From positions 2,988-66,987 of the forward strand of contig JAFGTR010000124.1 in assembly GCA_016934055.1 (NCBI GenBank): 64,000 nucleotides of DNA, written 5' to 3'. The stretch comes from Bacteroidales bacterium (lineage in GTDB: Bacteria; Bacteroidota; Bacteroidia; Bacteroidales; UBA10428). A program made the translations under genes and the position numbers. The notes beneath the pieces were generated by a model. That model was given only the letters and a program-made list of their open reading frames with translations, was not told the origin of the DNA and searched no databases. Shown piece after piece: positions 5,192-31,791 of the stretch (positions are counted from its first letter, which is position 1; each line of letters begins with the position of its first letter).

Positions 5192-5308
5192 ATGAAAGTA
5201 AGAGCATCAATTCGAAAAAGAAGTCCCGAATGCAAAATCGTTCGCAGGAAAGGACGCCTTTATGTGATCAACAAAAAGAATCCCAAGTATAAACAACGGC
5301 AGGGATAA
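5192..5308 (+). CDS. rpmJ: 50S ribosomal protein L36 (single-Cys form)
   Basis: 38-aa ORF read by hand: [38 protein letters not shown]. Lies in the canonical infA-L36-S13 slot. It has one Cys, so it lacks the zinc-ribbon CxxC...CxxxxH pattern. Confidence 0.9.
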
Positions 5309-5335
5309 TTTTATAATATTTAATTAATAGCATTT

Positions 5336-13000: not shown

Positions 13001-13289
13001 CATCGGCATTGATGAAACCAATTTTAAGGATCAGACATTTAAGAATCATATGATTCCGTTGCAGGAAGGCGATATTATATATATCTTCTCTGATGGTTTT
13101 GCTGATCAGTTTGGAGGCCCTGAAGGGAAAAAGTTTAAATACCGCAGGTTCAGGCATCTTTTGCTCAACATACATCAACTCCCTATGGATGATCAGCGAA
13201 ATATACTGGAAACAAGTCTTCGTGAATGGAAAGGCGATCTCGAACAGGTTGACGATGTTATGGTGCTGGGGATTAAGATTGATTTATAA
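10005..13289 (+). CDS. periplasmic propeller (Reg_prop repeats + Y_Y_Y-like) sensor fused to a cytoplasmic PP2C/SpoIIE-type serine phosphatase
   Basis: Signal peptide, then at least 9 repeats of the W(I/L)GT..GL..(Y/F) type (LWAGTENGLYRYD, LWIGTHNGLLVFD, LWIGTRNGLNRFD, FWIGTSNGLVYID, LWLGTNNGLVQYN and others). One TM helix (AYTVYFILILAFIIFLF). C-terminal SpoIIE motifs are SGDFYWI, AVDCTGHGVPGAFMS, SDGFADQFGG and DDVMVLGIKI. Confidence 0.85.
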   Translation: MNTIRTKLLLLSLLITRILFSQQYLKPEVLSADKGLLNPAITALITDYRGFLWAGTENGLYRYDGYHFKWIGQTPGKAGIIGSKTIIEIEQDKDHNLWFITDKGLEFYDHKTGIITVYSHQLIHKENIPAEAFLDLYVAPEQTIWTITESRLLKMISGNVVSSFPLPQEENNPPTCIAGDKNGNLWIGTHNGLLVFDMNSEKFTELFSAEKDFSSLLTNSHVTCIYIDSRTDLWIGTRNGLNRFDPVDVSFGKYYPVSFPRAHPGNDIRSIREDTKSSLVIITGDGLFSYNHHNGNFHRPEIQLPDPSYRSQLTSVLIDRQGIFWIGTHRGIIKVRKAPLKIENITPDNKASLKLPESNITAVAEDARGMIWLGYQHSGVSIADRNLMRMVSYSANGYSNLSGNAVRSFYTDRKSRFYVISAHAIDKFNFSNSRFETILANFPLSDKKIFDNLEIQAMTEDSLNNFWIGTSNGLVYIDFVNRVFKKINRLQSEYDSLILSVIYDLKTDNYNNLWLGTNNGLVQYNIAQKQFSRFTPYDKELLNTGHKNIYVIEKGVKDIYWIGTSEGCYQFDIRQKTFSSVSSNPDLLSSEIVSITVDPYENLWIATRHDIFYYCTSTQSLRHFDYLDGLNNFGFNINASSGKNGRNVYFGGSNGLTIIQNDSLYVTDISPPTTISGITLLHKGKVFREFIEIPDTISIPRGNYAIHIKFTMPDFNRPEQNQYRYSIAQQGKPSEMIDLYTSNSVILGGLSQGNYYFNVTGSTGNGEWNSKPAFLIITVEVPFWQSKPAYTVYFILILAFIIFLFRYWARQLIKANQQYKEREKIARQIMLQKEELTLKNKSITDSINYARRIQNAMLPPIKMFKSYFPQSFLFYMPKDIVSGDFYWINKLYSKIFISAVDCTGHGVPGAFMSIIGFELFRKITNIEGLSRPSDILNKLNEDFHEIFKDVDNVVLRDGMDVAFCAIDINDMILEFSGAFNPLYLIRDNKITEIKGDRFAIGIDETNFKDQTFKNHMIPLQEGDIIYIFSDGFADQFGGPEGKKFKYRRFRHLLLNIHQLPMDDQRNILETSLREWKGDLEQVDDVMVLGIKIDL

Positions 13290-15268: not shown

Positions 15269-16003
15269 ATGGATAAATTTGTTCATATTAAAGTTAGATT
15301 CGCAATCATGAATAAGGCGATTAATATAGTGTTGTGGGCTTTAATCATTTCTGTTTTTTCACTGCAGGCTCAACAGGAAAATGAAAATCTGGTAAAATAT
15401 ACCGCCGATTTTAATTTCAGGGAAGGTGTGTTCATAAATTTTGAACAGGTGAGACAAAACAATCCCATTCCAAAATCGAGCATTGTTACTTCGATTGCAT
15501 ACGATGACCCGGATTTCTTTGACAGAATCCTCGAAAACAAAAAGATATTTTACTTCAATGATCTGGGCATTAAAGAAGAAATTGCCGTTAAAAATATCTG
15601 GGGTTATTCAAGAAACGGTGTATTATATATCAGTTTGAATGATGGATATCACCGTATCACCATTGTTGGCAGCATATGTCATTTTGTTGCCAACCTTACA
15701 ACCTATTCTCCCGGTTATACGAGTCCTTATTATTATCCTTATTACGGTTACAATAATTTTTATAATCCTTACGGACTGACACCTGGATCATATGCATCAA
15801 CTGAAATGCGGCAGTATATCATGGATTTCAAAACGGGGCGTATCCTTGAATACAGTGTTGAAAGTGTAGAAGTATTGTTAATGGCCGATCCTGAACTGCA
15901 TGATGAATTTACAGGTTTGAGAAAGAAAAAAAAGAAACAACTCAAGTTCTTATACATCAGAAAATTCAATGAGAGAAATCCGTTATACTTTCCAATTAAT
16001 TAA
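15269..16003 (+). CDS. hypothetical secreted protein with a Tyr/Pro-rich segment
   Basis: 244-aa ORF. The alternative ATG at 15308 gives a cleaner signal peptide, MNKAINIVLWALIISVFSLQAQQ. Low-complexity segment YSPGYTSPYYYPYYGYNNFYNPYG. I recognise no family. Confidence 0.6.
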   Translation: MDKFVHIKVRFAIMNKAINIVLWALIISVFSLQAQQENENLVKYTADFNFREGVFINFEQVRQNNPIPKSSIVTSIAYDDPDFFDRILENKKIFYFNDLGIKEEIAVKNIWGYSRNGVLYISLNDGYHRITIVGSICHFVANLTTYSPGYTSPYYYPYYGYNNFYNPYGLTPGSYASTEMRQYIMDFKTGRILEYSVESVEVLLMADPELHDEFTGLRKKKKKQLKFLYIRKFNERNPLYFPIN

Positions 16004-16015: not shown

Positions 16016-16864
16016 ATGAAGAAGATTTTTGCCGGTCTTGTCATTCTGCTTCTTGGCGGAAAAGTATTCTCCCAGAGCTATGTGCCTTCACGAGAGGATA
16101 TTAATGCTTTTTATACAACCAAAACCCTGGTTGTACTCGAAGATAATCCACTACTTGAATACAATTACATCATCAAAGAGATTATGAAACAGGAGTGGAC
16201 TATTACTGAATATGACTTTATTTCTTCTGCCGAGTTCGAAGAAAAAAGAAAAGATCCTCAGTATTCATTCATATACCAGGCTCAGGTTACTTTTGAAAAT
16301 GATAATACGGATGCAGCGTATCGTTTTCTGCATCTCTCTTTGGGAGGCGACTATTTCAGGATGAACGAAATGCCGGATATTGTGGCTGTGCCCTTATCTT
16401 ATTACAGTGTTGAAGAAGATAATTATGCTTACAAGCTGGCTGTTTTGCTTAGATTCATGCAGAATCATGCTTTGCTTATCAGGGATAATCCTGAGATTTT
16501 ATCAGCCAATGTATTTAAACATTACAATGATAATATTAAAGACATACAGGATAAAACACTTTATATTCTTGAAAATGAACTCTCAAAGGATGTTAACTCA
16601 GCAGCCCGGATAAAAAAGGTATACCCTTACAAGTTCAGAATTGCCACAAAAGAAGAAATCGAAGAAGCTATTGAAGAAAGAAATCCCGATGTTGTGTTCC
16701 TGCATAAAGTAGGGCCTGAAGGCACCAAACTCGATGCGCGTTGTTATAAGGTCATTATAGGCGCAGCTGATGCGAATTTCTATTATTTTGATTACCATAA
16801 GATCAGTGATAAAAATCCGGATGGATTCCTTGAGAAGGATTTCAAAAGTCTGGTGAAAAAATAA
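16016..16864 (+). CDS. hypothetical secreted protein
   Basis: 282-aa ORF with signal peptide MKKIFAGLVILLLGGKVFSQ, 12 nt after the previous gene. No recognised motif. Confidence 0.6.
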   Translation: MKKIFAGLVILLLGGKVFSQSYVPSREDINAFYTTKTLVVLEDNPLLEYNYIIKEIMKQEWTITEYDFISSAEFEEKRKDPQYSFIYQAQVTFENDNTDAAYRFLHLSLGGDYFRMNEMPDIVAVPLSYYSVEEDNYAYKLAVLLRFMQNHALLIRDNPEILSANVFKHYNDNIKDIQDKTLYILENELSKDVNSAARIKKVYPYKFRIATKEEIEEAIEERNPDVVFLHKVGPEGTKLDARCYKVIIGAADANFYYFDYHKISDKNPDGFLEKDFKSLVKK

Positions 16865-17834: not shown

Positions 17835-17898
17835 CGGTTTATTTACAATACTTTTACACAGAAAAAACCTACCTTTGTGCGTTGTGAAAAACACATCC

Positions 17899-19902
17899 AT
17901 GATAGACCTTTCCGTTATCATTGTAAACTATAATGTCAGATTTTTTCTCGAACAATGTCTGCATTCAGTTTACAAATCAATACATAACATTAACGCCGAG
18001 GTGATTGTTGTGGATAACAATTCGGTGGACAGATCATGTCAGATGATCAGGGAAAAATTCCCCGATGTTATCCTGATAGAGAACAAGGTAAATGCAGGAT
18101 TTTCAAGAGCAAACAACCAGGCTATCCGAAAGGCCCGCGGCCGGTATGTCCTGCTTCTCAACCCCGACACTGTTGTTCAGGAAGATACTTTTTCAGCCTG
18201 CATTCAATTCATGGACAGCCATCCTGATGCAGGATGTCTGGGCGTAAAAATGATTGACGGGAAAGGCAATTTTCTGCCTGAATCAAAGCGCGGTTTACCG
18301 ACACCTCAGGTTGCTTTTTACAAGATATTCGGACTGTCAGCCCTGTTTCCGAATTCACCAAAATTCGGCCGGTATCATCTGGGATTTCTTGACAAAGATA
18401 AAATACACCAGGTTGATGTAATTTCAGGTGCTTTCATGTTTTTGAGGAAGAGTGTTCTTGATCGTACAGGGCTTCTTGACGAAGACTTTTTCATGTATGG
18501 TGAAGATATTGATATTTCATACCGAATCACACAGGCCGGTTTTAAGAATTACTATTTCCCTGAAACCACCATCATTCATTATAAGGGCGAAAGCACGAAG
18601 AAAAGCAGTATCAATTATGTTATTGTCTTTTATAATGCCATGGCCATTTTTGCCCAGAAGCATTTTTCGAAAAACATGGCACAAACATATAATTTCCTGA
18701 TTCATCTGGCCATTTATTTCAGAGCTGCTTTTTCTATTTTGCGCAGGTTTTTTCTGACTATAATTAATCCGGTTCTCAATGCCGCCGCCATCTATGCAGG
18801 ATACAAATTTTTTCTGCCCGTTTGGGAATCTTCAGTCTTCGGCAAGGAAGGTTATTATCCCGATACTTTTATTCATATTGTTGTTCCTGTTTATATTCTC
18901 ATCTGGTTATTGTCAGTTTATTTTTCCGGCGGATATGAAAAAATGGTCAGGGGCATGGATTTAATAAAGGGAATACTTCTGGGAACATTGGCTATCCTTA
19001 TAATCTATGCTTTATTGCCTGAGAGTTTCAGATTTTCAAGGGCCCTGATCATCATGGGTACTGTATGGGTCATTTTTTCTGCAGTTGGTATTCGTTTTCT
19101 TTTAAGCCTTGCAGATAAATCGAATTTCAAATTCGGTTTTTTCAGGAGCAAAAAACACATTATAATTATTGGCACTGAAGAAGAAGGCGAAAGAGTATAT
19201 TCCATTTTAAGGCAAACCCGGATTAAACCAGAGCTGATCGGATATGTCAGCCCGGATGAATCCTGCAACAACCTGAATTTTCTTGGTTCCGTGAGTATGA
19301 TTGAAGAAATCGTGAAAATCCATAAAGTTGATGAGTTGATATTCTGTGCCAAAGATATGACTTCCCGCAATATCATAAGCACCATGCTTAAGTTTACTAA
19401 TGCTGAACTTGATTTTAAAATTGCCCCGCCTGAAAGTCTTTCTGTTATTGGCAGTAACTCTATTAATACTGCAGGTGATCTGTACGTGGTTCATTTTAAC
19501 ACTTTATCAATGAATCTGAACCGAAGGAAAAAAAGGATACTGGATTTTTTGCTGTCAATTCTTTTCCTGGCTGTTTCGCCATTAACAGCCTTTTTTGTAA
19601 TTCATCCCGGTCGCTTTATTAAAAACATCTTTACAGTTTTGTTCGGTATTCATTCCTGGGTAGGATATCACCCTGTATCCGAAGCAACCATTTCATTACT
19701 GCCCCGGCTGAGACCCGGCATATTAACACCTGTCTGCCAACTGGAAAGCACAAATCAGGACCGGAAAACTGTTGAAAAAATTAATATGCTTTATGCCAAA
19801 GATTATTCCATCTGGAATGATCTTATCATCATATGGAAAGGTCTCCGTCAGCTTGGCTCCGGGCCGAATAACATCATCTATAGTTCGCATAACGCTGATT
19901 GA
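17899..19902 (+). CDS. family 2 glycosyltransferase fused to a multi-TM region, a Rossmann-like linker and a truncated sugar-transferase (Bac_transf-like) C-terminus
   Basis: The track ORF starts at TTG 17875. The ATG at 17899 gives MIDLSVIIVNYN, a GT2 start, followed by VVDNNSVD, NAGFSRANN, NPDT and YGEDIDISYR. Then several TM helices and HIIIIGTEEEGERVY. KRILDFLLSILFLAVSPL and YAKDYSIWNDLIIIWKGL resemble the two ends of a phosphoglycosyl-transferase domain. Confidence 0.75.
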   Translation: MIDLSVIIVNYNVRFFLEQCLHSVYKSIHNINAEVIVVDNNSVDRSCQMIREKFPDVILIENKVNAGFSRANNQAIRKARGRYVLLLNPDTVVQEDTFSACIQFMDSHPDAGCLGVKMIDGKGNFLPESKRGLPTPQVAFYKIFGLSALFPNSPKFGRYHLGFLDKDKIHQVDVISGAFMFLRKSVLDRTGLLDEDFFMYGEDIDISYRITQAGFKNYYFPETTIIHYKGESTKKSSINYVIVFYNAMAIFAQKHFSKNMAQTYNFLIHLAIYFRAAFSILRRFFLTIINPVLNAAAIYAGYKFFLPVWESSVFGKEGYYPDTFIHIVVPVYILIWLLSVYFSGGYEKMVRGMDLIKGILLGTLAILIIYALLPESFRFSRALIIMGTVWVIFSAVGIRFLLSLADKSNFKFGFFRSKKHIIIIGTEEEGERVYSILRQTRIKPELIGYVSPDESCNNLNFLGSVSMIEEIVKIHKVDELIFCAKDMTSRNIISTMLKFTNAELDFKIAPPESLSVIGSNSINTAGDLYVVHFNTLSMNLNRRKKRILDFLLSILFLAVSPLTAFFVIHPGRFIKNIFTVLFGIHSWVGYHPVSEATISLLPRLRPGILTPVCQLESTNQDRKTVEKINMLYAKDYSIWNDLIIIWKGLRQLGSGPNNIIYSSHNAD

Positions 19903-20068
19903 TTTGAAATAACCGCCATCACGGGGAAAACTTCCACAATCCTCCTTTTCAATATTGAAATGAATTCTTCTGTCTGATAAAAAGTTGATAAATAGCCATG
20001 TTTAACTTACCGGCAGGTATAGATAAATTGTTTAATTTTTTTAAATTTGTTCAGCAACAATACTATCT

Positions 20069-23000
20069 ATGAATAAATTGAGTTTATCCTTATTTGTTTA
20101 TTTTTTATTCCTGTCTGTACTTTTCCCCCCCTTACCCTTACATTCACAGGATGAAGACGCCAACCTTAAGGAAATTTTTCTTGAAGCAGAATCTTATTTC
20201 CTGTTTGAAGAATTCAAGGATGCGTTGCCTTTATATCAGCGTATTTTACATGCTGATCCCGAAAATTACAGTATCAATTACAAAATTGGTGTCTGTTACC
20301 TTAACGATCCGTATCAGAAACATAAATCAATACAGTATCTTGAAAAAGCTATTCAGGGAACCAGTCCTGATTATAAGCAAAACAATTTCAAAGAAAGAAA
20401 TGCCCCGCTTGAAGCCTTTTATTACCTTGGAAATGCCTATCGCATCAATAACCGTTTGAATGAAGCTGTTAAAGCCTACAACCATTTCAAACAAATACTC
20501 GACCCTGTTGTATATGATGAAGAACTTGTTAACACACAGATTAAAGCCTGTAAGATTGCAGAGGAATTTCAATCAAGGCCAAATCATTATATTGCAGATA
20601 ATCTGGGGGAACCTGTTAACGAACGTTACGCAGAAATAAATCCTGTCATCTCAGGCAATGAAAACGTCCTGATGTTTACACGGAAACTGCCCTTTTATGA
20701 TGCCGTTTTTTATGCTGAAAAAATAAACGGGAAATGGTCTGATCCGGTCAACCTGACGGCATTTTTTGCAGTTGACGGTAACAGTTATTGTACCGGATTA
20801 TCCTATGATGGCAGGGAAGCATTTATTTACAGGCTTGACGGATTTGATGGCAATTTGTACGTCAGCACTTTCGATGGTGAAAAATGGTCAAAACTTGTTA
20901 AGCTGAACAACAATATCAACACAAAATACTGGGAATCACACGCCTCCCTTTCCAATGACGGGAAAACACTTTACTTCACGAGTAACAGGAAGGAAGGCTA
21001 TGGCGGTCTTGATATTTACATATCTGAGCGAACACGGGGAGGAGACTGGGGCCCTGCTAAAAATCTCGGACCGGTTGTAAACTCAAAATATAACGAAGAA
21101 TCACCCTTCGTGTCAGAAGACGGAAAAACATTGTTTTTCAGTTCTCTCGGCCATTATAATATGGGAGGATATGATATCTTTTACAGTGACAGGCTTGACA
21201 ACGGACAATGGACCAAGCCGGTTAACCTGGGCTATCCACTTAACACCACCGGAGATGATATCTTTTTCTCCCCGGTAAAAAATGGTGAATATGCTTATTA
21301 TTCAACTTATGACGCGTCTGACAGTCATGGACTCACTGACATTTATAAAATGGAAGTATTCTATGACAAACATCCGCGTAAATTCATCCTGAACGGTATT
21401 GCCCGTATCGAAGATGAGCTTAAAGTTGATTACGGTAAAATTCTGGTTTCTCTTGTCGACCGGAATACAAACACCATGGTTGACCAGGTTGCAGTGAACC
21501 CAAATGGCTCATTTACGTTGAATGTAACCTCAGGTGATTTTGAGATGATATTCCAGGGTGAAGGTATTCAAAAGACATCAGAAAATATTTCAATTCCCGT
21601 GGATAATCCGTCCAATATTATTGCCTACACTTCTCCTTTAATTGCTCCGGGGCTTTTGTCTGAGAAAGAACCTGACCTCACTCCCAAACCGGTTGATGAG
21701 AAAGACCTTCCTACCCTTATCAGCAATTTTGATTCAATTGAGGTCATCACCGGTGAGGCTGTTCCCATAAAACTCGAACTGGAGCGTAACAGCAAACTTA
21801 CAATTGAGACCTATAATAACGGAATTCTCCGAAAGACAGAGGAATTTGATATCAACCGTAAACGGTTCATTTACCTGTTTACGCCGGAACCGGGAGAAAA
21901 CCTGTTGCAATTGACCCTGGCCGATGAACAGGGTAACATCAATTACCGGAAAATAAGGGTAAATTATATACCGGCTGCGGAAGAACTGGCCGAAAAACAA
22001 CAGGATATTTCACAGACAAAACCAGCTGACAGTTTTTATAAAAACCTTATCGGGCTTTCACGCGGTAACCTCAGAAAATTACTTGAAAGCACAAATCCTG
22101 ATTCTCCTGGTATGACTTCAGTCCATGACCTGTATAAATACCTTATAAGCCAGGCTGAAAACCATGGATACAGCATTGGTGAAGTTGACAGTCTTTTTGT
22201 TAAAATTTTATCCGGCAAAGACAGCGACATCTTCAGGGATGAATTGCATTTTATAGCCTCCGGCAACATAAAATCCACACTTGACACACTGGATATCAAA
22301 GCAGAAAATATTTATACCCCTGTCGATCTGCTCAACCTTTTGTACAATTCGGCTTCTGAAAATGTTTTTACCCGTTCAGACATGCGTCAACTGCTTACAG
22401 CCTCCATTTCTTCGGGGAATGATGATGTTTCACGATTCATCAGTATTCTTCGGGAATACAGCCATGACTCACTCAAACGCGTCTTAGGTCAGTTAGATGC
22501 TGCAAATTTGGGAATTCATCAGCCAAATGATCTTATTGAATATTTTGTTCAACAATATCCTTCACTCGCGGATTATCTTGATACTGCTCTCATGCACTCA
22601 GCTGCCAGCCTCGATCTTATGTTTTTGCACCAGAGTCTCATCTTTATATCAGAGGACAGTCTGAAGAACATGGTCAATAAGATAAGACCTGAAAAAGAAA
22701 ACATCAATACATCTGAAGCCCTGATCGGATATCTCTGGCAGAAATCTGCAACAAATGGTTATTCCAGGGAAGAATTAATCAATACAATCGACAAAATAAG
22801 AAAAGATCCTTACAGTGTTGTTGAAATGTTTCGTGATCTGCTCTCTTCCAGAGCCAGTGGCAGTCTTAAGACCGTAATTGATGAACTGGACATCAGGGCT
22901 ATGCATATTGACACCTTTGAAGATCTGCTTGATTATCTGATACGGCAATCTGATGCTCATGATTATAACAGAGAAACTGTATACAGTTTGCTGCTGGATA

Positions 23001-23365
23001 TCATAAATCCGCTAAGTCTTGATGATTTTCTTGCCTCTCTGAAAAAGCATGCCGGTGAGAACATTCTGAATGCATTATCTTTATTGGATGTTAATGTAAT
23101 CTCCACGCCTTTTGAAGTTATCCGTTATCTGCTCAGCGTTTCTGAGGAATATGGTTATACTGAACGCGATCTCCTTAATCTGTTGCTTAAACTTGCTCTC
23201 GAAAAAGGTCCTGCCGTTGCTGATGAAACAGTTAAAAGCAAAGGCATACTTCATGTATTCCGTAAACCCGGAATGGTCAGAAACCTGATTATTGTTAACA
23301 GCATCATAATCCTTATCATCATTTTCCTTGTATTCAGAAAAAAATCCAAAAAAGAAGAACGCTAA
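20069..23365 (+). CDS. TPR + PD40 (TolB-like) beta-propeller protein, paralog 1: two beta-sandwich regions, six helical repeats and a C-terminal TM anchor
   Basis: Signal peptide, then the TPR-like NYKIGVCYLN, YLEKA and NAPLEAFYYLGNAYRINNRLNEA. PD40-type repeats ESHASLSNDGKTLYFTSNRKEGYGGLDIY and EESPFVSEDGKTLFFSSLGHYNMGGYDIF. C-terminal hydrophobic helix LIIVNSIIILIIIFLVF followed by RKKSKKEER. Confidence 0.8.
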   Translation: MNKLSLSLFVYFLFLSVLFPPLPLHSQDEDANLKEIFLEAESYFLFEEFKDALPLYQRILHADPENYSINYKIGVCYLNDPYQKHKSIQYLEKAIQGTSPDYKQNNFKERNAPLEAFYYLGNAYRINNRLNEAVKAYNHFKQILDPVVYDEELVNTQIKACKIAEEFQSRPNHYIADNLGEPVNERYAEINPVISGNENVLMFTRKLPFYDAVFYAEKINGKWSDPVNLTAFFAVDGNSYCTGLSYDGREAFIYRLDGFDGNLYVSTFDGEKWSKLVKLNNNINTKYWESHASLSNDGKTLYFTSNRKEGYGGLDIYISERTRGGDWGPAKNLGPVVNSKYNEESPFVSEDGKTLFFSSLGHYNMGGYDIFYSDRLDNGQWTKPVNLGYPLNTTGDDIFFSPVKNGEYAYYSTYDASDSHGLTDIYKMEVFYDKHPRKFILNGIARIEDELKVDYGKILVSLVDRNTNTMVDQVAVNPNGSFTLNVTSGDFEMIFQGEGIQKTSENISIPVDNPSNIIAYTSPLIAPGLLSEKEPDLTPKPVDEKDLPTLISNFDSIEVITGEAVPIKLELERNSKLTIETYNNGILRKTEEFDINRKRFIYLFTPEPGENLLQLTLADEQGNINYRKIRVNYIPAAEELAEKQQDISQTKPADSFYKNLIGLSRGNLRKLLESTNPDSPGMTSVHDLYKYLISQAENHGYSIGEVDSLFVKILSGKDSDIFRDELHFIASGNIKSTLDTLDIKAENIYTPVDLLNLLYNSASENVFTRSDMRQLLTASISSGNDDVSRFISILREYSHDSLKRVLGQLDAANLGIHQPNDLIEYFVQQYPSLADYLDTALMHSAASLDLMFLHQSLIFISEDSLKNMVNKIRPEKENINTSEALIGYLWQKSATNGYSREELINTIDKIRKDPYSVVEMFRDLLSSRASGSLKTVIDELDIRAMHIDTFEDLLDYLIRQSDAHDYNRETVYSLLLDIINPLSLDDFLASLKKHAGENILNALSLLDVNVISTPFEVIRYLLSVSEEYGYTERDLLNLLLKLALEKGPAVADETVKSKGILHVFRKPGMVRNLIIVNSIIILIIIFLVFRKKSKKEER

Positions 23366-23373
23366 GCAAAGTC

Positions 23374-25377
23374 ATGATCCCCCGCCTGCCTTTAAAAATA
23401 AAAATCCTGCCTGTTTTCCTTTCTCTGGTTATGCAGGCAAGTACTCAGATCATCATACCTACTCATGCTGATTTGTACACCGAAGCAGAGGAATATATGC
23501 TTGCGGGAGAATACAAGGAAGCCCTTCCTTTATATCTGGATCTTTATGATAAGGGTTATGCTACCGCTAATCTTAATTTTAAAATCGGGGAGTGTTATCT
23601 TAACCTGCCCGGACAAAAAGATAAAGCTGTACCATACCTTGAAAAAGCATGCTCAAAAATATCTGCTGCATACACAGGAACAGATCTTAATGAAGAAAAT
23701 GCCCCCCTGGTTGCTTATCTTTATCTCGGAATAGCTTATCGCCTCGGTTATGATTTTAATAAGGCCGGAGAATCATTTATGACCATGCTCTCAAAAGTTG
23801 ACACTGCTGATCATCAAACGCGTATCCTGCTGGAATATCATATTAACCGCTGTCATAATGCTGAGGAGCTGATTCATTCACCTGCCATTGTAAACCGCAA
23901 AGTTTTACCCGGAAACATCAACACGGCCTATTCAAATTCCAATGCCCTGGTGCTGGCCGACGAAAAGACCATGTTTTATATGAATGAGTTAAAGTTTTAT
24001 GATGCTGTGATGCAAGCCGTAAAAACAGGTGAAGGCTGGCAGGAACCGACAAACATAACCCCTATGATCAAATCAGACGGAGATCATTTTATTACCGGCA
24101 TTTCGGCTGATGGGACCACACTGTTTCTAACTTTTTATGATCCTTACAACAGCGGTGAGATTTTCTCAAGCCATCTTGTCAACGATAAATGGACACCTGT
24201 CACAAAGCTCAATAATAATATCAACACCGTTTTCAATGAAACACATGCCAGTCTTTCAGCCGATGGAAAAACACTGTATTTCACAAGCGACCGTAAAGGA
24301 GGTTATGGAGGACTTGATCTTTATAAATCTGAGTTTATACAGGATGAATGGGGTCCTGCTAAAAATCTCGGACCGGCGATTAACACCATTTTTGATGAAG
24401 AGACACCTTTTCTGACACCTGACGGTAAAAAGCTTTTTTTTAGTTCCCAGGGCCATTATAACATGGGAGGTTTTGATATTTTCTGCAGCGAAAATAATCA
24501 TGGCAACTGGTTGCCCCCGGCAAATATTGGTTTTCCGGTTAACACCACCGATGATGACCTTTTCTTTTATCCTGTCGATACCGGATCGGTAGCCTACATG
24601 GCTTTGAGAGACAAAGGCGCCGGGGAATCAGACATCTACAGGTTTGAGCTGAGTCAATTTGCCAATCCTTCGCGTTATAAACTTATGGGGCAGGTGACCC
24701 CTGATTCAGGTGAAAGTAAAGATATTGACAAAATAAAGGTTGTCTTTATTGAAAAAGAGAACATGGACACCATTGCATCTCAGCATCTTGATAAAGAAGG
24801 GAAATTCAACCAAAAGCTGACCTGTGGAAATTTTGATCTTTTTTTTACAAACAACGAGGGAGATCTTATTGACAGAAAAGAATTGGCCATACCGCCTAAT
24901 TTCCCGCAGGATCAACTTGTTTTTAACACACAGATATCATTGCCGGTAAAGGTTAAAGCTGATACTTTCCGGCTTGAAAACATATTATTTGCTTTTGATA
25001 ACAGCACTATTCCACCTCAATCAGAAAAATATCTAAATTCATTGATTGATATGATGTTACGCTATCCTGACACAAGGCTGGAGGTAACAGGATTCACAGA
25101 TGCAATCGGCAAACAAGACTATAACATGAAACTATCCTACCGCCGTGCCATGTCAGTAACTGATTTCATCATCAGGCAGAATATCAATCCATCCCGTGTC
25201 ATCACCAAAGGTCTGGGAGAGTCAAGGCCGGTAGCATTGAATTGCAATGCCGACGGCACTGATAATCCTGAAGGCAGAAAATTCAACAGACGGGCAGAAA
25301 TAGAAATTTTCATGCTTCCTGACCATTGGGTACTGATAAAAAAAGATGAAGTGCCTGATTATTTAAAAAGTAAATGA
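23374..25377 (+). CDS. TPR + PD40 beta-propeller + OmpA-like peptidoglycan-binding protein, paralog 2
   Basis: Same N-terminal module as paralog 1: NFKIGECYLN, PYLEKA, ETHASLSADGKTLYFTSDRKGGYGGLDLY, EETPFLTPDGKKLFFSSQGHYNMGGFDIF. C-terminal OmpA_C motifs are ILFAFDNSTI, VTGFTDAIGKQDYNMKLSYRRA, GLGESRPV and NRRAEIEI. Starts 8 nt after paralog 1. Confidence 0.85.
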   Translation: MIPRLPLKIKILPVFLSLVMQASTQIIIPTHADLYTEAEEYMLAGEYKEALPLYLDLYDKGYATANLNFKIGECYLNLPGQKDKAVPYLEKACSKISAAYTGTDLNEENAPLVAYLYLGIAYRLGYDFNKAGESFMTMLSKVDTADHQTRILLEYHINRCHNAEELIHSPAIVNRKVLPGNINTAYSNSNALVLADEKTMFYMNELKFYDAVMQAVKTGEGWQEPTNITPMIKSDGDHFITGISADGTTLFLTFYDPYNSGEIFSSHLVNDKWTPVTKLNNNINTVFNETHASLSADGKTLYFTSDRKGGYGGLDLYKSEFIQDEWGPAKNLGPAINTIFDEETPFLTPDGKKLFFSSQGHYNMGGFDIFCSENNHGNWLPPANIGFPVNTTDDDLFFYPVDTGSVAYMALRDKGAGESDIYRFELSQFANPSRYKLMGQVTPDSGESKDIDKIKVVFIEKENMDTIASQHLDKEGKFNQKLTCGNFDLFFTNNEGDLIDRKELAIPPNFPQDQLVFNTQISLPVKVKADTFRLENILFAFDNSTIPPQSEKYLNSLIDMMLRYPDTRLEVTGFTDAIGKQDYNMKLSYRRAMSVTDFIIRQNINPSRVITKGLGESRPVALNCNADGTDNPEGRKFNRRAEIEIFMLPDHWVLIKKDEVPDYLKSK

Positions 25378-25507
25378 AGTTCATAAACTGTATATTATTT
25401 TTAAAAATCAGTATTGAATTAAGGAGAGGCCTTTTAATAATTGAAAAAGAATTGTTGGCAAAGCAAGATTTTAATTGTTAAATTTGTTTAGACAAAAACC
25501 CTTCCTC

Positions 25508-27508
25508 ATGAAAAAACTAATACTCATTTCTATAATTCTGTTGACCGCTTTTTGTATAACGGGGCAACCCATGAGCAAGACCGAATTAAAGGAATACTTC
25601 CTCGATGCAGAATTCTTTTTTGCCCAGGAAGAATATACAGATGCTTTATATGATTATATGGAGCTCTATAATAACGGTTATAATGAAAATGCCAATATCA
25701 ATTACCGTATTGGCGTATGTTATCTTAACATAACCGGACAAAAAGAAAAGTCCATTCCCTTTCTCAACTATGCAGTGCAGAATACCACACGAAGATACAG
25801 GAACGGTTCTTTCAAAGAGACCCGTGCACCCCTTGACGCCTGGTTATTTCTGGGAAATGCTTACAGGATTAATAATCAACTTGACAAGGCCATTGAAATC
25901 TATAACAAGTATAAGAGCATTGCAAAATCTACCGATGAAATCAATTATGCCGATCAGCAAATAAAAGCCTGCCAGGTTGCCAAAACATTTATGGCTGATC
26001 CATTACCGGTTCGCAGAACGAATCTGGGATCGCCAGTCAATACAAATTCTTCGAATTTCAAAGCTGTGGTGTCCGGAGACGGCAAAACCCTTGTTTATAT
26101 GAATGAACTCCCGTTTTACGATGCTGTATATTACTCCACTTATCAAAACAATAACTGGACTGAACCCGTCAACATCACACCGCAATTGCAATCTGATGGC
26201 GATCAATATGTAAGTTCCATTTCATACGACGGAAAAACACTGTATCTCACCCGGGAGGGTAATTTTGACAGCGATATACTGATCAGCCGGTATGAAAACG
26301 GAAAATGGACAAAATCGGTTCTTCTCGGCGGAAATATAAATACCAAATACTGGGAATCACATGCTTCAGTGTCAAAGGATGGCAATACACTTTATTTTAC
26401 CAGCAACCGTAAGGGAGGACCAGGGTCCATGGATATTTTTAAGGCCAAACGTGATGCTTCGGGTGCATGGAGCGAGCCTGTTCCCCTGGATGAAAAAGTC
26501 AATACATTGCTGAATGAAGATACGCCCTTTATAACCGATAGCGACAGTCTATTATTTTTCAGTTCTCAGGGACATGTTACCATGGGAGGATATGATATTC
26601 AAATGGTAAGACTGACACCTTCCGGCACCTGGTCTGAACCGGAAAATCTGAGATATCCCATCAATACCACCGATGATGATCTTTTTTATTATCCCTGGCA
26701 TAATGGTAAAATAGGCTATGTTTCAATTTATGACAAGGATGGTGCCGGTAAAGAGGATATTTATGCCATTCAGCCTGAAACCGCAAAGGCTTATGACCTG
26801 GTGCTGGCTGACCTAATTAAAGAAGAGATGTCAGAAGTCAAACCCGAATTCGTCACAACTCCCCGGGAAGAACCGGACGTAGAAGTCTCTGAAGAAACTG
26901 ACGTGGAAGAAAAACCGGCTGAAACACTGGCCCCGCAACAAGTTGAAACAATTGAAGAACAACCTGCCGAAGAAGCTGAACCGGTTGTTGAAAAAGAAAT
27001 CCTGGCACAGGAAGGTGTTGAAACTATTGAAGAACAGCCTGCTGAAGAAGCTGAACCTGTTGTGGCCGAAACAAAAACCATGGTTGAAGAATTGTTTCTT
27101 AATCCGGTATACTTTGCCTTTGATAAGTATTCTTTATCTGAAACAGGTAAGAATGAACTTAAAAAACTGGCAGAAGTCATGAAAAATCGCCCGGCATCCA
27201 CCCTTAAACTTGTTGGTTATGCCGATGCCGTAGGTCCTGCTCCATATAACCTAACCCTTTCTGAAAAACGCGCTGTCACAGCCATGAAATTCCTTGTAAG
27301 CCTGGGTATCGAAGCCAGTCGCCTTTCTGCTGTCGGACTGGGTGAAACAAATTTTGCCGCCATCAACAAAAATCCTAACGGCACCGATAATCCTGAAGGA
27401 CGAAGGCTTAACCGCAGGGTTGAATTCGAAATATTGGGCATCGGTTCTGATGAGTTGTTGATTAAAAGACCGGTTATACCGGAAAAACTAAGGTATAAAG
27501 AAAACTAA
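25508..27508 (+). CDS. TPR + PD40 beta-propeller + acidic repeat linker + OmpA-like protein, paralog 3
   Basis: The track ORF starts at TTG 25475. The ATG at 25508 gives signal peptide MKKLILISIILLTAF. Shared module: NYRIGVCYLN, APLDAWLFLGNAYRINNQLDKA, ESHASVSKDGNTLYFTSNRKGGPGSMDIF. OmpA_C: VYFAFDKYSL, LVGYADAVGPAPYNLTLSEKRA, GLGETNF, NRRVEFEI. Confidence 0.85.
   Translation: MKKLILISIILLTAFCITGQPMSKTELKEYFLDAEFFFAQEEYTDALYDYMELYNNGYNENANINYRIGVCYLNITGQKEKSIPFLNYAVQNTTRRYRNGSFKETRAPLDAWLFLGNAYRINNQLDKAIEIYNKYKSIAKSTDEINYADQQIKACQVAKTFMADPLPVRRTNLGSPVNTNSSNFKAVVSGDGKTLVYMNELPFYDAVYYSTYQNNNWTEPVNITPQLQSDGDQYVSSISYDGKTLYLTREGNFDSDILISRYENGKWTKSVLLGGNINTKYWESHASVSKDGNTLYFTSNRKGGPGSMDIFKAKRDASGAWSEPVPLDEKVNTLLNEDTPFITDSDSLLFFSSQGHVTMGGYDIQMVRLTPSGTWSEPENLRYPINTTDDDLFYYPWHNGKIGYVSIYDKDGAGKEDIYAIQPETAKAYDLVLADLIKEEMSEVKPEFVTTPREEPDVEVSEETDVEEKPAETLAPQQVETIEEQPAEEAEPVVEKEILAQEGVETIEEQPAEEAEPVVAETKTMVEELFLNPVYFAFDKYSLSETGKNELKKLAEVMKNRPASTLKLVGYADAVGPAPYNLTLSEKRAVTAMKFLVSLGIEASRLSAVGLGETNFAAINKNPNGTDNPEGRRLNRRVEFEILGIGSDELLIKRPVIPEKLRYKEN
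26942..27064 (+). repeat. 75-nt in-frame tandem duplication in the acidic linker of paralog 3
   Basis: GTTGAAAC(A/T)ATTGAAGAACA(A/G)CCTGC(C/T)GAAGAAGCTGAACC(G/T)GTTGT occurs at 26942 and again at 27017. It encodes VETIEEQPAEEAEPVV twice. The copies differ only at synonymous positions. Confidence 0.85.
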
Positions 27509-27587
27509 CAACTGTTGTCTTATCAATATGTGTGATTGTCGGTTTTCATTTTGTTTCACAGTCTGACATGTCTCAAAATCAAATAAT

Positions 27588-28883
27588 ATGCGACAAATTC
27601 TCACCCTGGCCTGCTTCCTGTTTTTTATTGCTTCAGCTGTTTCCCAAACCAGTGAGGAAATAAAGGAGCATTTTGATGAAGCAGAATACTTTTTTAACCG
27701 CAAAGATTTTGAAGAAGCCGCCTATTATTATAAAAAGGTTCTGGCTCAATATCCTGACAACGCAAATTTTAATTTTAAGCTGGGAGAATGCTATCTGAAC
27801 ATCCCCGGAGCAGAGTCACAGGCCGTCCCTTATCTGGAAAAAGCTGTTGAAAGAACAATAGAGAAAAACAAGTATAAATCAAAATCATTTGAAGAAAAAA
27901 ATGCGCCTTTACATGCCTATTTTTACCTTGGTAACGCATACAGGATCAACAATCAGCTCGATAAAGCACTTACAGCATATAACACTTTCATCAATTCTCC
28001 TTATTACTATGGAAACTATAATGAAACCATTGTCGAGAATGAGATAAAAGCCTGTGAGCGTGCAAAGATCATCCAGGACAGCCCTGTTAACCTTACCGAG
28101 GAATTGCTGCCCGAACCGGTAAACAGTGATGCGTCTGAAATTCGACCGGTTGTTTCGGGAAACGAAAAAACCATCGTTTTTATCAGAAAACTTAAATTTT
28201 ATGATGCAATCCTGTTATGCAAAAAAGAAGGCGAAGAATGGAGCCAGCCTCTTAACCTCAACCCACTGGTTGGCTCAGACGGCGATTTTTATCCGGCTTT
28301 CCTGTCTCATGATGGCAAAGAACTCTATCTGATCAGAAACTTTTCAGAAAATGGTGACCTGTATGTCAGTTTCTTCAGGGAAAATACATGGACTAAAGCA
28401 GAAAAACTGCAGGGCCCTGTTAATACCAATGCCAATGAAGCATCTGCCTGCCTTTCAGAAGACGGACAATGGCTGTATTTCTCAAGTGACCGCATGGGCG
28501 GGAAAGGTGGGCTTGACATCTATGTTGCAAAACGAAAAGCAAAAAACGAGTGGGTAAAAATAAAAAATCTTGGAAAAACCATTAATTCGGAATTCGATGA
28601 AGACAGTCCATGCCTGACCAACCAGGGTAAAACATTATATTTCTGCTCGAAGGGCCATTACAGCATGGGCGGATTTGATCTTTTCTATGCCAACAAAGAG
28701 GGTAAGAAATGGTCAACTCCGGTTAATGCGGGTTATCCTGTTAATACCACGGCTGATAATAATAATATGACAGTTATGCAGGGAGGAAAGATCATTTATC
28801 TCTCAAAGATCGATACAACAGGCAGCGAGAACGAAAACCTGTATAAATTAAAGATCTTGTCCTACCTGCCCCTTCCCCGATAA
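27588..28883 (+). CDS. TPR + PD40 beta-propeller protein, paralog 4 (core module only, no anchoring domain)
   Basis: Signal peptide MRQILTLACFLFFIASAVSQ. Shared motifs: NFKLGECYLN, PYLEKA, NAPLHAYFYLGNAYRINNQLDKA, SACLSEDGQWLYFSSDRMGGKGGLDIY, EDSPCLTNQGKTLYFCSKGHYSMGGFDLF. The protein ends right after the propeller. Confidence 0.8.
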   Translation: MRQILTLACFLFFIASAVSQTSEEIKEHFDEAEYFFNRKDFEEAAYYYKKVLAQYPDNANFNFKLGECYLNIPGAESQAVPYLEKAVERTIEKNKYKSKSFEEKNAPLHAYFYLGNAYRINNQLDKALTAYNTFINSPYYYGNYNETIVENEIKACERAKIIQDSPVNLTEELLPEPVNSDASEIRPVVSGNEKTIVFIRKLKFYDAILLCKKEGEEWSQPLNLNPLVGSDGDFYPAFLSHDGKELYLIRNFSENGDLYVSFFRENTWTKAEKLQGPVNTNANEASACLSEDGQWLYFSSDRMGGKGGLDIYVAKRKAKNEWVKIKNLGKTINSEFDEDSPCLTNQGKTLYFCSKGHYSMGGFDLFYANKEGKKWSTPVNAGYPVNTTADNNNMTVMQGGKIIYLSKIDTTGSENENLYKLKILSYLPLPR

Positions 28884-28932: not shown

Positions 28933-29496
28933 GTGCCCGATATAAATAAAATATATCCATCCATAAGTCTTAGGGCTTTGGAACCTGAAGACGTTGAAGT
29001 ATTGTTCCGATGGGAAAATGATCCTGAAATATGGAAGGTCAGTAATACCATTGCGCCTTTTTCACGGTATACACTGGAAAAATATATCGAAAATTCCCAT
29101 CTTGATATCTACCAGGTAAAACAATTAAGAATGATGATCGATGTTAAAGAATCGGCCAGGAAAAAAATACGACCTGTCGGAACCATAGATCTTTTTGATT
29201 TCGATGCGTTTCACAACCGCGCGGGCATAGGCATTTTAATAGGAGATAAATCTGACAGGAAAAAGGGTTATGCTTCTGAAGCCCTTGCACAATTCATCCG
29301 GTATACTTTCGATACGCTTCAATTGCATCAGCTTTATTGCAATATCGCAACTGATAATCATGAGAGCATAGGACTCTTTACCAGGAACGGTTTTATTATC
29401 TGCGGAGAAAAAAAAGACTGGCTCAAAACATTTAATGGATATAAAAATGAATATATCCTTCAACTCATTAATTCTTCTGATGCATTATACAGGTAA
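28933..29496 (+). CDS. GNAT family N-acetyltransferase (RimJ/RimL-like)
   Basis: 187-aa ORF with a GTG start. LRALEPEDVEVLFRWENDPE is an N-terminus typical of the Acetyltransf_3 type. The GIGILIGDKSDRKKGYASEAL region looks like the acetyl-CoA binding site. Confidence 0.7.
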   Translation: MPDINKIYPSISLRALEPEDVEVLFRWENDPEIWKVSNTIAPFSRYTLEKYIENSHLDIYQVKQLRMMIDVKESARKKIRPVGTIDLFDFDAFHNRAGIGILIGDKSDRKKGYASEALAQFIRYTFDTLQLHQLYCNIATDNHESIGLFTRNGFIICGEKKDWLKTFNGYKNEYILQLINSSDALYR

Positions 29497-29691: not shown

Positions 29692-31791
29692 TTGCACTTT
29701 GAAAAATCTATTTTTTTTATATTTTTATATATTGGACTAATAACCTTATCCTTGAATAATCTTATTAAAGGCCGCAGAATCTGCAGGTTATTCATTTCTG
29801 TAGCAATCCTTAACCTGTTACTGACAGGTTCCGGCATAGCGCAAAATGAAGACAAAATACAAACCATTCTTGAGACATCCGATGTAAAGAAACTTGTTAA
29901 GGCTGATAAATATATAGATGATGCTGACAGGCTCATCGAAGAAGCAAATCAATTGTATCTCGAGACATTTTCAGTGCAGGGCGATTATAACCTTGATGAA
30001 AAAACCAAAGGTAAAAAAGTTGAAAAACTTGAAGAGCAGGCCCGGGGAAAAATAACCGAAGCCTCTGTATTTTACCAGAAAGGACATGAAATAAAGTATG
30101 GTGTATACAAAACCTATATTGAAAAATTCTGGTCAGATTATGAAGGAGATGGTTCGGCCTATGTAAACGCAAAACTTATTGAAGAACAATCTAATGACTT
30201 CTATTTTCAGGCATTGACAAACCGTACCGAAGCCAATAAAATGCCTGACGGCAATGAAAAAATTCAAAAGCTTAATCAGGCCACCGATCTTGAAAACCAG
30301 GCTATCGATAAACAGATTACCGCACTTGGCCTGTATTATGATATAGATCTCGAAGAAGCAACTGCTGAGGGATTACCGGCACCTGTTGATGAATATGAGC
30401 CCTATCAGGCGGAAACTCCGGTTGCAGAGCAGCCAGCGGAAATCTATCAACCTGATATTACCGGGCAGACTGAACTATCACAGCCTGATGAACACTATGA
30501 ACCTGTTGTTGAAAAAGAGCCTGAAGCTGCAAAACCGGAGGTACAATATCAACCATATGCAACCGTACAACCCGAAACTGCAACATCAGACCAGGTTGTG
30601 ATCAACCAGCAGATGATTGATATGTATAACCGTTATGTTATTTCGCAGGGCAGGCCCGAAGATTCAGTTCCCACCACAGGTTTTGCAAATGTCAGCGCTT
30701 TTGAGATCGAAAAGATCCTTGATCTGTGGAACGCTTTTCTCAGCCGGTCGGTCACAGAAGAAGCTCAACTCCCCCAACCAACTGCTGTTATTGACACAAC
30801 AGCGCCTGTTTTTGCTGAAGAAACGGCTCCGGCATTGCCGGAAATTAAGCCGGAACAGCAGGAAATCACAGAAGAACAGGTTGCAATAGTTGACAATGAA
30901 AGGCAGGCACAGCAGATCCCGTCTGATGATAAAATTATCTACCGTGTGCAAGTCGCTGCCAACAAAACCGAGCTTAGCCAGGGCGCTCTTCAGCGTATTT
31001 ATTATGGCAATAAATCTGTAGAGATGCTTGAAGAGAATGGCTGGTATAAGTATTCAGTCGGTGATTTTAACACCTATGCCGAAGCCAATAAATTCAGAAA
31101 ATCCAGTGGCGTGAAGAATGCCTTTATTGTCGCATATCGCCAGGGTAAGCGTTTTATGCCGGGAATTTCTGAAAAAACCGATTTAACGGCTGAATCAATG
31201 GCACCCACCGGTGAAGGCAATATGCCGGCAGGCCTTATATTCCGTATCCAGGTTGCAGCAGCAAGAGCACAACTGACAAAAGAACAACTTACCAGAATAT
31301 ATGCCGGTGCGTATGCCGTTGAAGTCATAGAAGAAGACGGCTGGTACAAATACCAGCTCTTTGGCGTGCGCCTTTATTCCGATGCAATAAGGATTCTGAA
31401 AGATATACCGGTGAAAGGTGCTTTTATTTCCGCTTATGAAGACGGCAACCTCACTAACCTGTATAAGGCTGTAGTTAAGAACCGTACCCTTGAAAGGACA
31501 GTTATAAGCTCCGGCCGTAAAAATCTGCGTGAAATTGAATTTCATGTGCAGCTTGCTGCCTCAAAATTTCCCATTAAACAAGATGATTTTTCACAATTGT
31601 ATTCAGGGTCCGAACCTGTGGCCCTGGTTATTGAAGATGGATGGTACAAATACCGTATCAAAGCAGGCAATTCTTATAACCTGGCAAAACAAATTAAAGC
31701 CGGATGCGGCGTTGAAAAAGCATTTATCGTTTCCTATAAACAAGCCCGGAAAATTAATCTGTATGAAGCAATTCGTAATGTCAATCCATAG
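29692..31791 (+). CDS. secreted protein with a coiled N-terminal region, an E/P/Q-rich linker and three SPOR-like (peptidoglycan-binding) repeats
   Basis: The repeat (Y/F)R(V/I)Q(V/L)AA...L...Q(L/R)IY.G...VE..EE(N/D)GWYKY...G....Y..A.......VK.AFI.(A/S)Y occurs three times. There is no in-frame ATG near the 5' end. Candidate starts are TTG 29692 or TTG 29752. The latter gives MNNLIKGRRICRLFISVAILNLLLTGSGIAQ, a good signal peptide. Confidence 0.7.
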   Translation: MHFEKSIFFIFLYIGLITLSLNNLIKGRRICRLFISVAILNLLLTGSGIAQNEDKIQTILETSDVKKLVKADKYIDDADRLIEEANQLYLETFSVQGDYNLDEKTKGKKVEKLEEQARGKITEASVFYQKGHEIKYGVYKTYIEKFWSDYEGDGSAYVNAKLIEEQSNDFYFQALTNRTEANKMPDGNEKIQKLNQATDLENQAIDKQITALGLYYDIDLEEATAEGLPAPVDEYEPYQAETPVAEQPAEIYQPDITGQTELSQPDEHYEPVVEKEPEAAKPEVQYQPYATVQPETATSDQVVINQQMIDMYNRYVISQGRPEDSVPTTGFANVSAFEIEKILDLWNAFLSRSVTEEAQLPQPTAVIDTTAPVFAEETAPALPEIKPEQQEITEEQVAIVDNERQAQQIPSDDKIIYRVQVAANKTELSQGALQRIYYGNKSVEMLEENGWYKYSVGDFNTYAEANKFRKSSGVKNAFIVAYRQGKRFMPGISEKTDLTAESMAPTGEGNMPAGLIFRIQVAAARAQLTKEQLTRIYAGAYAVEVIEEDGWYKYQLFGVRLYSDAIRILKDIPVKGAFISAYEDGNLTNLYKAVVKNRTLERTVISSGRKNLREIEFHVQLAASKFPIKQDDFSQLYSGSEPVALVIEDGWYKYRIKAGNSYNLAKQIKAGCGVEKAFIVSYKQARKINLYEAIRNVNP

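Follow-up and report, generated by a model that had tools for sequence, protein, structure and literature searches.

The 64,000-nucleotide stretch of an uncultured Bacteroidales genome analyzed here (the window; assembly GCA_016934055.1, contig JAFGTR010000124.1) carries a tandem array of four paralogous genes, P1 to P4. They encode one exported head, made of TPR-like helices and a PD40 beta-propeller, that continues into a different C-terminal part in each protein. We propose that they are a lineage-specific set of envelope tethers of the PorE/CHU_0125 type, in which one head would be shown from several layers of the envelope, and we give this reading an even chance of being right. We describe the domain identities, topology signals, orthologous groups, synteny, operon layout, and in situ transcription of the array, and from these we infer that the paralogs associate physically, what the head may bind, and which physiological role they have. 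Bacteroidota couple the outer membrane, the wall, and the inner membrane without a recognizable Tol-Pal system. A 2025 study did not find recognizable tol-pal loci in Bacteroidetes (PMC12204202), and only in that year were PorE-family proteins proposed as the missing tether.

Four paralogs with a common head

P1 (20069 to 23365; features are on the plus strand unless stated otherwise) encodes 1098 residues, P2 (23374 to 25377) 667, P3 (25508 to 27508) 666, and P4 (27588 to 28883) 431. A preliminary description of this DNA had reported four consecutive same-strand open reading frames (ORFs) separated by 8, 130, and 79 nt, which is correct if P3 starts at ATG 25508. The ORF listing gives the upstream TTG 25475 as the start of P3. 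We favor the ATG because the N termini of the orthologs agree with it and because a promoter element, the -7 box described below, sits at 25479 to 25486. Each ORF begins with a signal peptide, as had been noted, and in 31 to 37 orthologs of each of the four families these peptides end in (A/S/G)-Q, the signal peptidase I (SPase-I) pattern of the Bacteroidota known as the "Q-rule". No conserved lipobox Cys follows the signal peptide in these orthologs, so that none of the four proteins is a lipoprotein.

The module common to P1 to P4, first put at about 420 residues, is real and spans about 430: pairwise BLASTP alignments extend over 400 to 650 residues at 36 to 46% identity (E 1e-93 to 1e-131), and more than 90 columns are invariant when all four paralogs are aligned. 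The core motifs quoted in the preliminary description can be seen in this alignment, some of their positions being different in P2 and P4. In the Pfam comparison PD40 (PF07676) scored 49 to 66 bits in all four paralogs, above its gathering score of 20.9 bits, and OmpA (PF00691; gathering score 27.2 bits) scored 61.4 bits in P2 and 66.4 bits in P3. Pfam TPR matches are weak except in P4, and in P1 all of them lie below the gathering scores. The view of the first half as TPR-like and of the second as a PD40/TolB-type propeller is upheld by the PD40 matches, by the helices and the propeller of an AlphaFold2 (AF2) model, and by the presence of TolB among the best Foldseek matches.

Relationship to PorE and CHU_0125

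For each of P1 to P4 the two best NCBIfam matches are NF053607 (CHU_0125) and NF052230 (PorE). The CHU_0125 model gives 156, 234, 218, and 136 bits for P1, P2, P3, and P4 (cut-off 620 bits), and the PorE model 113, 232, 179, and 132 bits (cut-off 600 bits). The former aligns end to end with P2 (residues 28 to 645 against positions 16 to 636 of 639) and with P3 (residues 20 to 655 against positions 9 to 638), which does not hold for P1 or P4; the latter was aligned to residues 35 to 622 of P2. The four-domain order of PorE (TPR, beta-propeller, CRD, OmpA_C) is found in P2, P3 lacks the CRD, and P1 and P4 lack the OmpA_C domain. Since both models cover P2 and P3 from end to end, the architecture was already known, and we rejected the idea that it is novel. 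The earlier statement that no characterized system has this layout was mistaken: the order TPR-propeller-CRD-OmpA_C has been published for PorE (PMC7192894, PMC12773672), and CHU_0125 of Cytophaga hutchinsonii combines TPR, PD40, and OmpA_C in a protein with a Pal-like role in outer-membrane integrity (PMC5891637). When the latter is deleted, the cells become hypersensitive to harmful compounds and release vesicles at about six times the usual number (PMC5891637). We also rejected the assignment of P1 to P4 as orthologs of PorE or CHU_0125, given scores at about one third of the cut-offs, the absence of a lipobox, and the absence of a porP neighbor. The array had further been called a new arrangement of a Tol-Pal domain set. 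The fold types are indeed present, the analogy itself having been published for PorE (PMC12204202), and the arrangement is known at the level of the family. What stands of the claim are the conserved multi-anchor array, its division into two operons, and two of its members, the one with a SPOR tail and the inner-membrane one with a helical stalk, none of which was found in the literature searched.

This kinship raises the question of whether the paralogs could be accessory components of T9SS (the type IX secretion system), that is, extra PorE paralogs that anchor sub-complexes, or PorP-like barrels and type-B cargo, to the wall and, via P1, to the inner membrane. The OmpA_C domain of PorE binds peptidoglycan and the protein bridges it to the outer-membrane barrel PorP (PMC7192894, PMC9143113, PMC12773672), its WD40 domain likely taking part in the contact with PorP (PMC12773672). 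In F. johnsoniae a number of porE-like genes exist, and they adjoin porP-like genes (PMC9143113; multiple copies are also described in PMC12204202). Such a role would fit the alignment of the PorE model over the full length of P2. It would also fit the presence of T9SS cargo: the window encodes a 343-residue protein (56257 to 57288) with a C-terminal Por_Secre_tail, a T9SS type-A C-terminal domain (CTD), and a second gene for such cargo lies in one related locus (L001). The organism therefore uses T9SS, and hence a canonical PorE may exist elsewhere in its genome. Against a part in secretion, the scores of 113 to 232 bits stand far from the PorE cut-off and the CHU_0125 model does equally well or better, the proteins lack the lipobox Cys of the lipoprotein PorE, and no porP/sprF-like gene, type-B CTD, or other por/gld gene occurs in the window neighborhood or in five annotated loci (L001, L002, L040, L042, and L044). 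We consider this explanation distinctly unlikely.

One head, several predicted anchors

The C termini diverge as the preliminary description had it, with a stalk and a transmembrane (TM) helix in P1, a sandwich and an OmpA domain in P2, an acidic linker and an OmpA domain in P3, and nothing in P4. P1, identified from the ORF listing and a PD40 match (E 5e-18), was modeled with AF2 from 51 orthologs (predicted local distance difference test score [pLDDT] of 80.5). Residues 27 to 168 (20147 to 20572) form TPR-like helices and residues 176 to 430 (20594 to 21358) the PD40 beta-propeller, a fold that the prediction reproduces and for which Foldseek returned the YVTN propeller 1l0q (E 1.9e-10) and TolB (2hqs and 7mx5, about 1e-7). 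Two beta-sandwiches follow. The first (residues 438 to 524; 21380 to 21640) is homologous to the sandwich of P2, the BLASTP alignment between the two proteins extending to residues 527/524, and is called CRD-like on the basis of CarboxypepD_reg matches in relatives. The second (residues 550 to 633; 21716 to 21967) was modeled with a pLDDT of 83 to 90.

Between the sandwiches and the membrane lies a stalk of helical repeats (residues 637 to 1045; 21977 to 23203), delimited by a repeat alignment and a separate AF2 model. It begins with a half unit, followed by six units of about 66 residues and about four helices each, the last of them truncated, with the consensus D....I.T..DL..YL..QS...GY.R...L..I...F...L...S..LK..L..L. 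BLASTP of P1 against itself did not detect these repeats, which became visible only in a model-guided alignment. Modeled by itself, the stalk reached a pLDDT of 84.7 and a predicted template modeling score (pTM) of 0.80. Foldseek against the PDB gave nothing significant for its fold (best E 0.13), a profile search of PDB sequences found no relative, and neither Pfam nor NCBIfam has a matching family. A phmmer search of 1.84 billion cluster representatives returned 132 matches at E ≤1e-3, nearly all of them at positions of about 650 to 1100 in proteins of 950 to 1500 residues. Seven distant carriers were checked: five keep the PD40 N terminus, and four of those five have TPR or CRD matches as well. 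Given the 132 matches and the carriers that keep the PD40 N terminus, the stalk is a rare module, variable in repeat number and essentially confined to this architecture, and it defines a helical repeat without a solved relative.

The protein ends in a TM helix (residues 1067 to 1090; 23267 to 23338; hydropathy 2.66, helical in the AF2 model) followed by the tail RKKSKKEER. Among the 51 orthologs, conservation reaches 90% or more at N1077, R1090, and K1094, and a polar Asn within a TM helix commonly drives helix-helix association. A cleaved N-terminal signal peptide, one TM helix at the C terminus, and a tail of Lys and Arg lead us to predict that P1 is a type I inner-membrane protein. The same signals indicate that the stalk lies close to the membrane and the TPR-propeller head at the far end. 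A C-terminal sorting signal of the sortase, exosortase, or rhombosortase type was considered and dropped, as no NCBIfam sorting domain matches P1, and a plain membrane anchor was kept. More than 100 clusters of full-length P1 orthologs (about 1096 residues, 45 to 71% identity) come from metagenome-assembled genomes (MAGs) of Bacteroidales, where they are annotated merely as "PD40 domain-containing" or "TPR repeat" proteins. Two further observations concern the membrane end of P1. A gene for a rhomboid intramembrane protease (36771 to 37388) lies a few genes downstream of the array and is 67 to 86% identical in relatives. In most P1 orthologs the TM helix bears, where it meets the periplasm, a conserved (K/R)P(A/G)L...VN(G/S/A) motif, in the C-terminal region encoded by 23240 to 23365. 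Type I single-pass proteins can be cleaved by rhomboids. P1 might be a rhomboid substrate that is shed, plain synteny being another possible cause of the linkage.

P2 and P3, both periplasmic, carry the OmpA domain at 24985 to 25245 (61 bits) and 27110 to 27382 (66 bits), respectively, and the matches of P2 in the PDB include PorE itself (6TOP, E 4e-13). The peptidoglycan-binding motif G..D..G...YN..LS..RA...NRRVE is at least 90% conserved among 68 P2 and P3 sequences. In the place of the CRD, P3 has an acidic, Glu/Pro-rich linker of low complexity (26795 to 27082, recognized from its composition), which is 29% Glu and contains a duplicated segment of 16 residues, VETIEEQPAEEAEPVV. Tandem Repeats Finder reported no DNA tandem repeat in this linker, and P3 orthologs range from 612 to 684 residues in length. 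P4, a soluble periplasmic protein by prediction, terminates directly after the core.

Three related loci (L040, L042, and L044) encode a fifth paralog, whose tail matches SPOR (PF05036, 22.6 bits) and aligns to the SPOR repeats of a protein encoded in the window downstream of the array (29692 to 31791). The latter has 699 residues and runs from an N-terminal membrane anchor through a coiled-coil-like region and a linker rich in Pro and Glu to three SPOR-like repeats, for which the Pfam match is marginal, with 22 bits at a gathering score of 21. SPOR domains bind peptidoglycan in which the glycan is denuded, typically at the septum. In related loci the long form of this SPOR-like gene (about 640 to 700 residues) is almost always followed by Wza-Wzc and the short form (about 375 to 470 residues) directly by HSDR_N/holA. 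The head is thus found with five tails: a TM stalk, a CRD with OmpA_C, an acidic linker with OmpA_C, none, and a linker with SPOR.

An old and conserved array

Scanning GTDB species genomes with the stalk alignment yielded 35 loci, all in MAGs of uncultured Bacteroidales or Bacteroidota bacteria from sediment, spring, and soil metagenomes; the window itself corresponds to the MAG GCA_016937675.1. Gene order was established by ORF calling and BLASTP against the proteins of the window. Conserved co-location, which had been set beforehand as a test, is strongly supported: about 37 genomes of uncultured Bacteroidales retain the order P1-P2-P3-P4, at 41 to 74% identity. P1, P3, and P4 form a constant core that is present in every complete array locus. 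All loci of sufficient length show the same block: a histidine kinase on the opposite strand, two genes of no known family (unkA and unkB), a TPR gene, a GT2 gene, in about 20 loci an E2 acyltransferase gene, P1 to P4, usually a GNAT gene, the SPOR-like gene, and sometimes Wza-Wzc. In three loci from MFD long-read MAGs (L013, L016, and L033) and in no other assemblies, several genes of the block (the histidine kinase, GT2, P1, and P2) appear split into two or three ORFs, which are probably long-read indel errors and not pseudogenes.

A neighbor-joining tree of 139 cores places P1, P2, P3, and P4 each in a clade without foreign members. Mean identity within families is 69% (P1), 53% (P2), 62% (P3), and 56% (P4), and between families it is 35 to 43%. 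Because the four clades hold no foreign members, the duplications must be older than the divergence of these genomes.

Two transcription units

The element TAAATTTG occurs at 20042 to 20049, 19 nt before the ATG of P1, and at 25479 to 25486, 21 nt before the ATG of P3; it fits TAnnTTTG, the -7 promoter consensus of the Bacteroidota. Counting boxes that end about 13 to 26 nt (mostly 19 to 23) upstream of a start, where chance would give about 0.03 in each 60-nt window, we found one before P1 in 32 of 34 loci and before P3 in 32 of 35, before P2 in 1 of 31, and before P4 in 10 of 33. The boxes of P1 end 13 to 22 nt (mostly 19 to 22) before the start. The box is informative only when tested by position across loci: over the whole window the two-part pattern TTTG...TAnnTTTG did no better than chance, and a sigma-70 promoter scan gave 68 sites against 52 expected and is uninformative for a Bacteroidota genome.

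Median gaps across loci are -8 nt for P1-P2 (many loci have 8-nt overlaps and L043 a 4-nt overlap), 98 nt for P2-P3, about 10 nt for P3-P4, and 18 nt between P4 and the GNAT gene, a distance that exceeds 56 nt in just one of 28 loci. No plus-strand terminator-like hairpins were found in the intergenic gaps of the array. The boxes at P1 and P3, the short or overlapping gaps, and the lack of intergenic terminators thus lead us to divide the array into two conserved predicted transcription units, one of P1 and P2 and one of P3, P4, and GNAT. The last gene of the second unit (28933 to 29496; Acetyltransf_3, Pfam E 5e-23) encodes a GNAT acetyltransferase that is distantly PseH-like. A metatranscriptome of the same study contains low-depth contigs on unkB, GT2, P1, and P2, one of which (23091 to 23383) crosses the junction between P1 and P2.

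A proposed role in the cell envelope

In the tether reading that we prefer, the common head, TPR helices and a propeller of the six-blade type, would be exported by Sec with SPase-I signal peptides and then held in different places. P1 would be kept in the inner membrane by its C-terminal TM helix, with the basic tail in the cytoplasm, and its head would be borne on the six helical repeats together with the pair of Ig-like sandwiches. OmpA_C would fix P2 and P3 to peptidoglycan, the former through a rigid CRD sandwich and the latter through a flexible acidic linker. P4 would be a free periplasmic head, and in sister lineages the SPOR domain would anchor a fifth copy at septal-type glycan. By analogy with PorE-PorP, CHU_0125, and Pal, the heads probably bind a common partner, which could be an outer-membrane protein or other heads. 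The most likely result would be a mechanical and organizational coupling between the inner membrane, peptidoglycan, and the partner of the head, extending an integrity function like that of Pal or CHU_0125 to the inner membrane. To the proposal made for PorE the array would add an inner-membrane-anchored member, a SPOR-anchored member, and a free head, together in conserved operons. Binding between heads or between head and partner, layer-specific localization, and recruitment to the division site become testable predictions.

A bolder version is that the array is a complete trans-envelope machine replacing Tol-Pal, with P1 as the spanning element, P2 and P3 as Pal-like wall anchors, P4 as a mobile TolB-like head, and the SPOR paralog for septal delivery. 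The stalk of P1 would then contribute a previously undescribed fold, and its intramembrane Asn could mediate assembly with itself or with a membrane partner. We find this doubtful.

Several observations weigh against these proposals, the tether reading included. The membership of the array is not fixed: P2 is truly absent from L027 and L038, and L044 has a single OmpA paralog. A metagenome locus (L041, DRR082460) has a full-length P1 homolog (2134 to 5403, 41% identity) without P2 to P4 as neighbors; its neighbors are instead a GH97 glycosidase and a polysaccharide deacetylase, and it lacks the conserved TM Asn. An obligate four-part complex is therefore unlikely. Part of the conserved synteny may simply reflect relatedness within one order, and the flanking genes that share it (holA, rhomboid, and the E2 acyltransferase) are functionally unrelated. 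No motor genes of the TolQ/TolR kind (MotA/ExbB- and ExbD-type) were found among the scanned genes of the window or in those related loci that were annotated. With no outer-membrane partner identified and no lipid anchor on the proteins, a link to the outer membrane is hypothetical. Finally, the metatranscriptome shows that the array is transcribed in situ through contig-level data of low depth, for which DNA carry-over is possible. The hosts are uncultured, and the joint action of the proteins is an inference.

Plastic membership, with loss of P2, gain of the fifth paralog, and the P1 singleton of L041, would also be expected if the genes were sub-functionalized tandem duplicates, each with its own target and no joint machine. 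The between-family identity of just 35 to 43%, the conservation levels that differ among the families, and the two separate promoters agree with such independence. Yet order and adjacency have been held over about 37 genomes at roughly 50% identity, and the only P1 found alone is the divergent one of L041, P1, P3, and P4 being together in every complete array locus. Moreover, the P1-P2 overlap and the tight P3-P4 gaps suggest translational coupling and matched dosage. Fully independent duplicates thus seem unlikely to us.

Neighboring genes

The genes around the array suggest yet another function, a periplasmic scaffold for the synthesis or export of a surface polysaccharide, comparable to AlgK, PelB, PgaA, or BcsC, that would work with the upstream TPR and GT2 proteins, the GNAT acetyltransferase, and Wza/Wzc. 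TPR and GT2 genes precede the array in every locus that is long enough, including L040, the further context of which is different. The coupling of the GNAT gene to P4 is tight, the window and about 10 related loci have Wza-Wzc further downstream, and the GT2 protein has a WbaP-like membrane and CoA_binding_3 region. This association is loosened by an unrelated gene for an E2 acyltransferase (Biotin_lipoyl, E3_binding, 2-oxoacid_dh; stand-alone lipoyl-domain) that parts GT2 from P1 in about 20 loci, among them L001, L002, L042, and L044. The spacing between the two genes is bimodal, about 100 to 260 nt or about 1400 to 1700 nt, the sub-lineage of the window lacking the E2 gene (gap 19903 to 20068). 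P1 also has its own conserved promoter box, most loci have no Wza/Wzc, and the OmpA_C and SPOR anchors point to peptidoglycan and not to a glycan conduit. We know of no polysaccharide pathway that includes proteins with PD40 and OmpA_C. A polysaccharide scaffold is, in our view, quite improbable.

The GT2 fusion gene (17875 to 19902), kept in all related loci at 57 to 80% identity, encodes an N-terminal GT2 glycosyltransferase, four TM helices, and the CoA_binding_3 region, with a weak partial Bac_transf match (profile positions 93 to 175 of 179, E 2.8e-4). The protein resembles a WbaP-type phosphoglycosyl transferase with a truncated or degenerate catalytic domain. Further upstream, unkA (15269 to 16003) encodes a signal anchor and a Tyr/Pro/Gly-rich segment, and unkB (16016 to 16864) a secreted protein of about 282 residues that is the best conserved of the block (63 to 85% identity). 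Neither has a Pfam or NCBIfam family, and Pfam at E values up to 10 gave only noise.

A large sensor phosphatase (10005 to 13289), with Reg_prop/Y_Y_Y propellers, one TM helix, and a SpoIIE/PP2C, SiaA-like C terminus, adjoins a hybrid histidine kinase with five TM helices in the opposite orientation (13401 to 15152, minus strand). The kinase lies upstream of the block in nearly all loci that are long enough, and the phosphatase wherever the locus reaches that far. At the other end of the window, a second hybrid histidine kinase (58551 to 62618, minus strand) of 1355 residues has at least five PAS domains together with HisKA, HATPase, and receiver domains. In the source sediment metagenome, one contig passes from position 15450 directly to 30114 and leaves out the 14.6 kb between them. 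Only 22 letters lie on the shorter side of this join, for which a short coincidental match or a misassembly from another strain is the most likely cause.

Comparison with known systems

The closest characterized protein is PorE (PGN_1296/PG1058 of Porphyromonas gingivalis; C-terminal domain structure 6TOP), which comes from the same phylum and order as the host of the array and which P2 resembles in domain order and in its peptidoglycan-binding motif. PorE is a lipoprotein encoded by a lone gene, whereas P1 to P4 are non-lipoproteins without a porP neighbor and belong to a conserved multi-gene array. The inner-membrane anchor and the helical stalk of P1 lie outside the published four-domain architecture of PorE. 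The 2025 study describes PorE as fusing CpoB, TolB, CP, and Pal and as possibly a "compact Tol-Pal system", for which it suggests trafficking to the septum and a transducer of the TolA/TonB kind as possibilities (PMC12204202). Of the curated families, CHU_0125 scores best with each of the four paralogs, and its architecture of TPR, PD40, and OmpA_C recurs in P2 and P3. Its Pal-like role in envelope integrity is the function that we propose for the array. CHU_0125 is, however, a single gene, for which partners of the inner-membrane, SPOR-tailed, or core-only type are not described.

With the Tol-Pal system of Proteobacteria (TolQRA-TolB-Pal-CpoB), the array shares folds: a TolB-like propeller (Foldseek about 1e-7), a Pal-like OmpA_C domain, and CpoB-like TPR. 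The TIGRFAM scores all fall far below their cut-offs, with 21 bits for TolB (P4; TIGR02800, cut-off 343), 54 to 58 bits for Pal (P2 and P3; TIGR02802, cut-off 125), and 20 bits for YbgF/CpoB (P4; TIGR02795, cut-off 90). The array has neither the N-terminal domain of TolB nor a lipoprotein Pal, and its domains are fused on one repeated scaffold. As an inner-membrane-anchored, largely helical element that could span the periplasm, P1 is loosely like domain II of TolA, but its TM helix is C-terminal, that of TolA being N-terminal, and neither Pfam nor NCBIfam places a TolA or TonB domain in P1, so the C-terminal domain of these transducers is missing.

Tol-Pal is targeted to the division site, and the SPOR-tailed paralog hints that a similar targeting could exist here. 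Like FtsN, DamX, DedD, and RlpA, the fifth paralog and the downstream protein of the window carry SPOR-type domains. In the array, these domains stand either on a TPR-propeller head or, as a triple repeat, after a coiled coil and a Pro/Glu linker.

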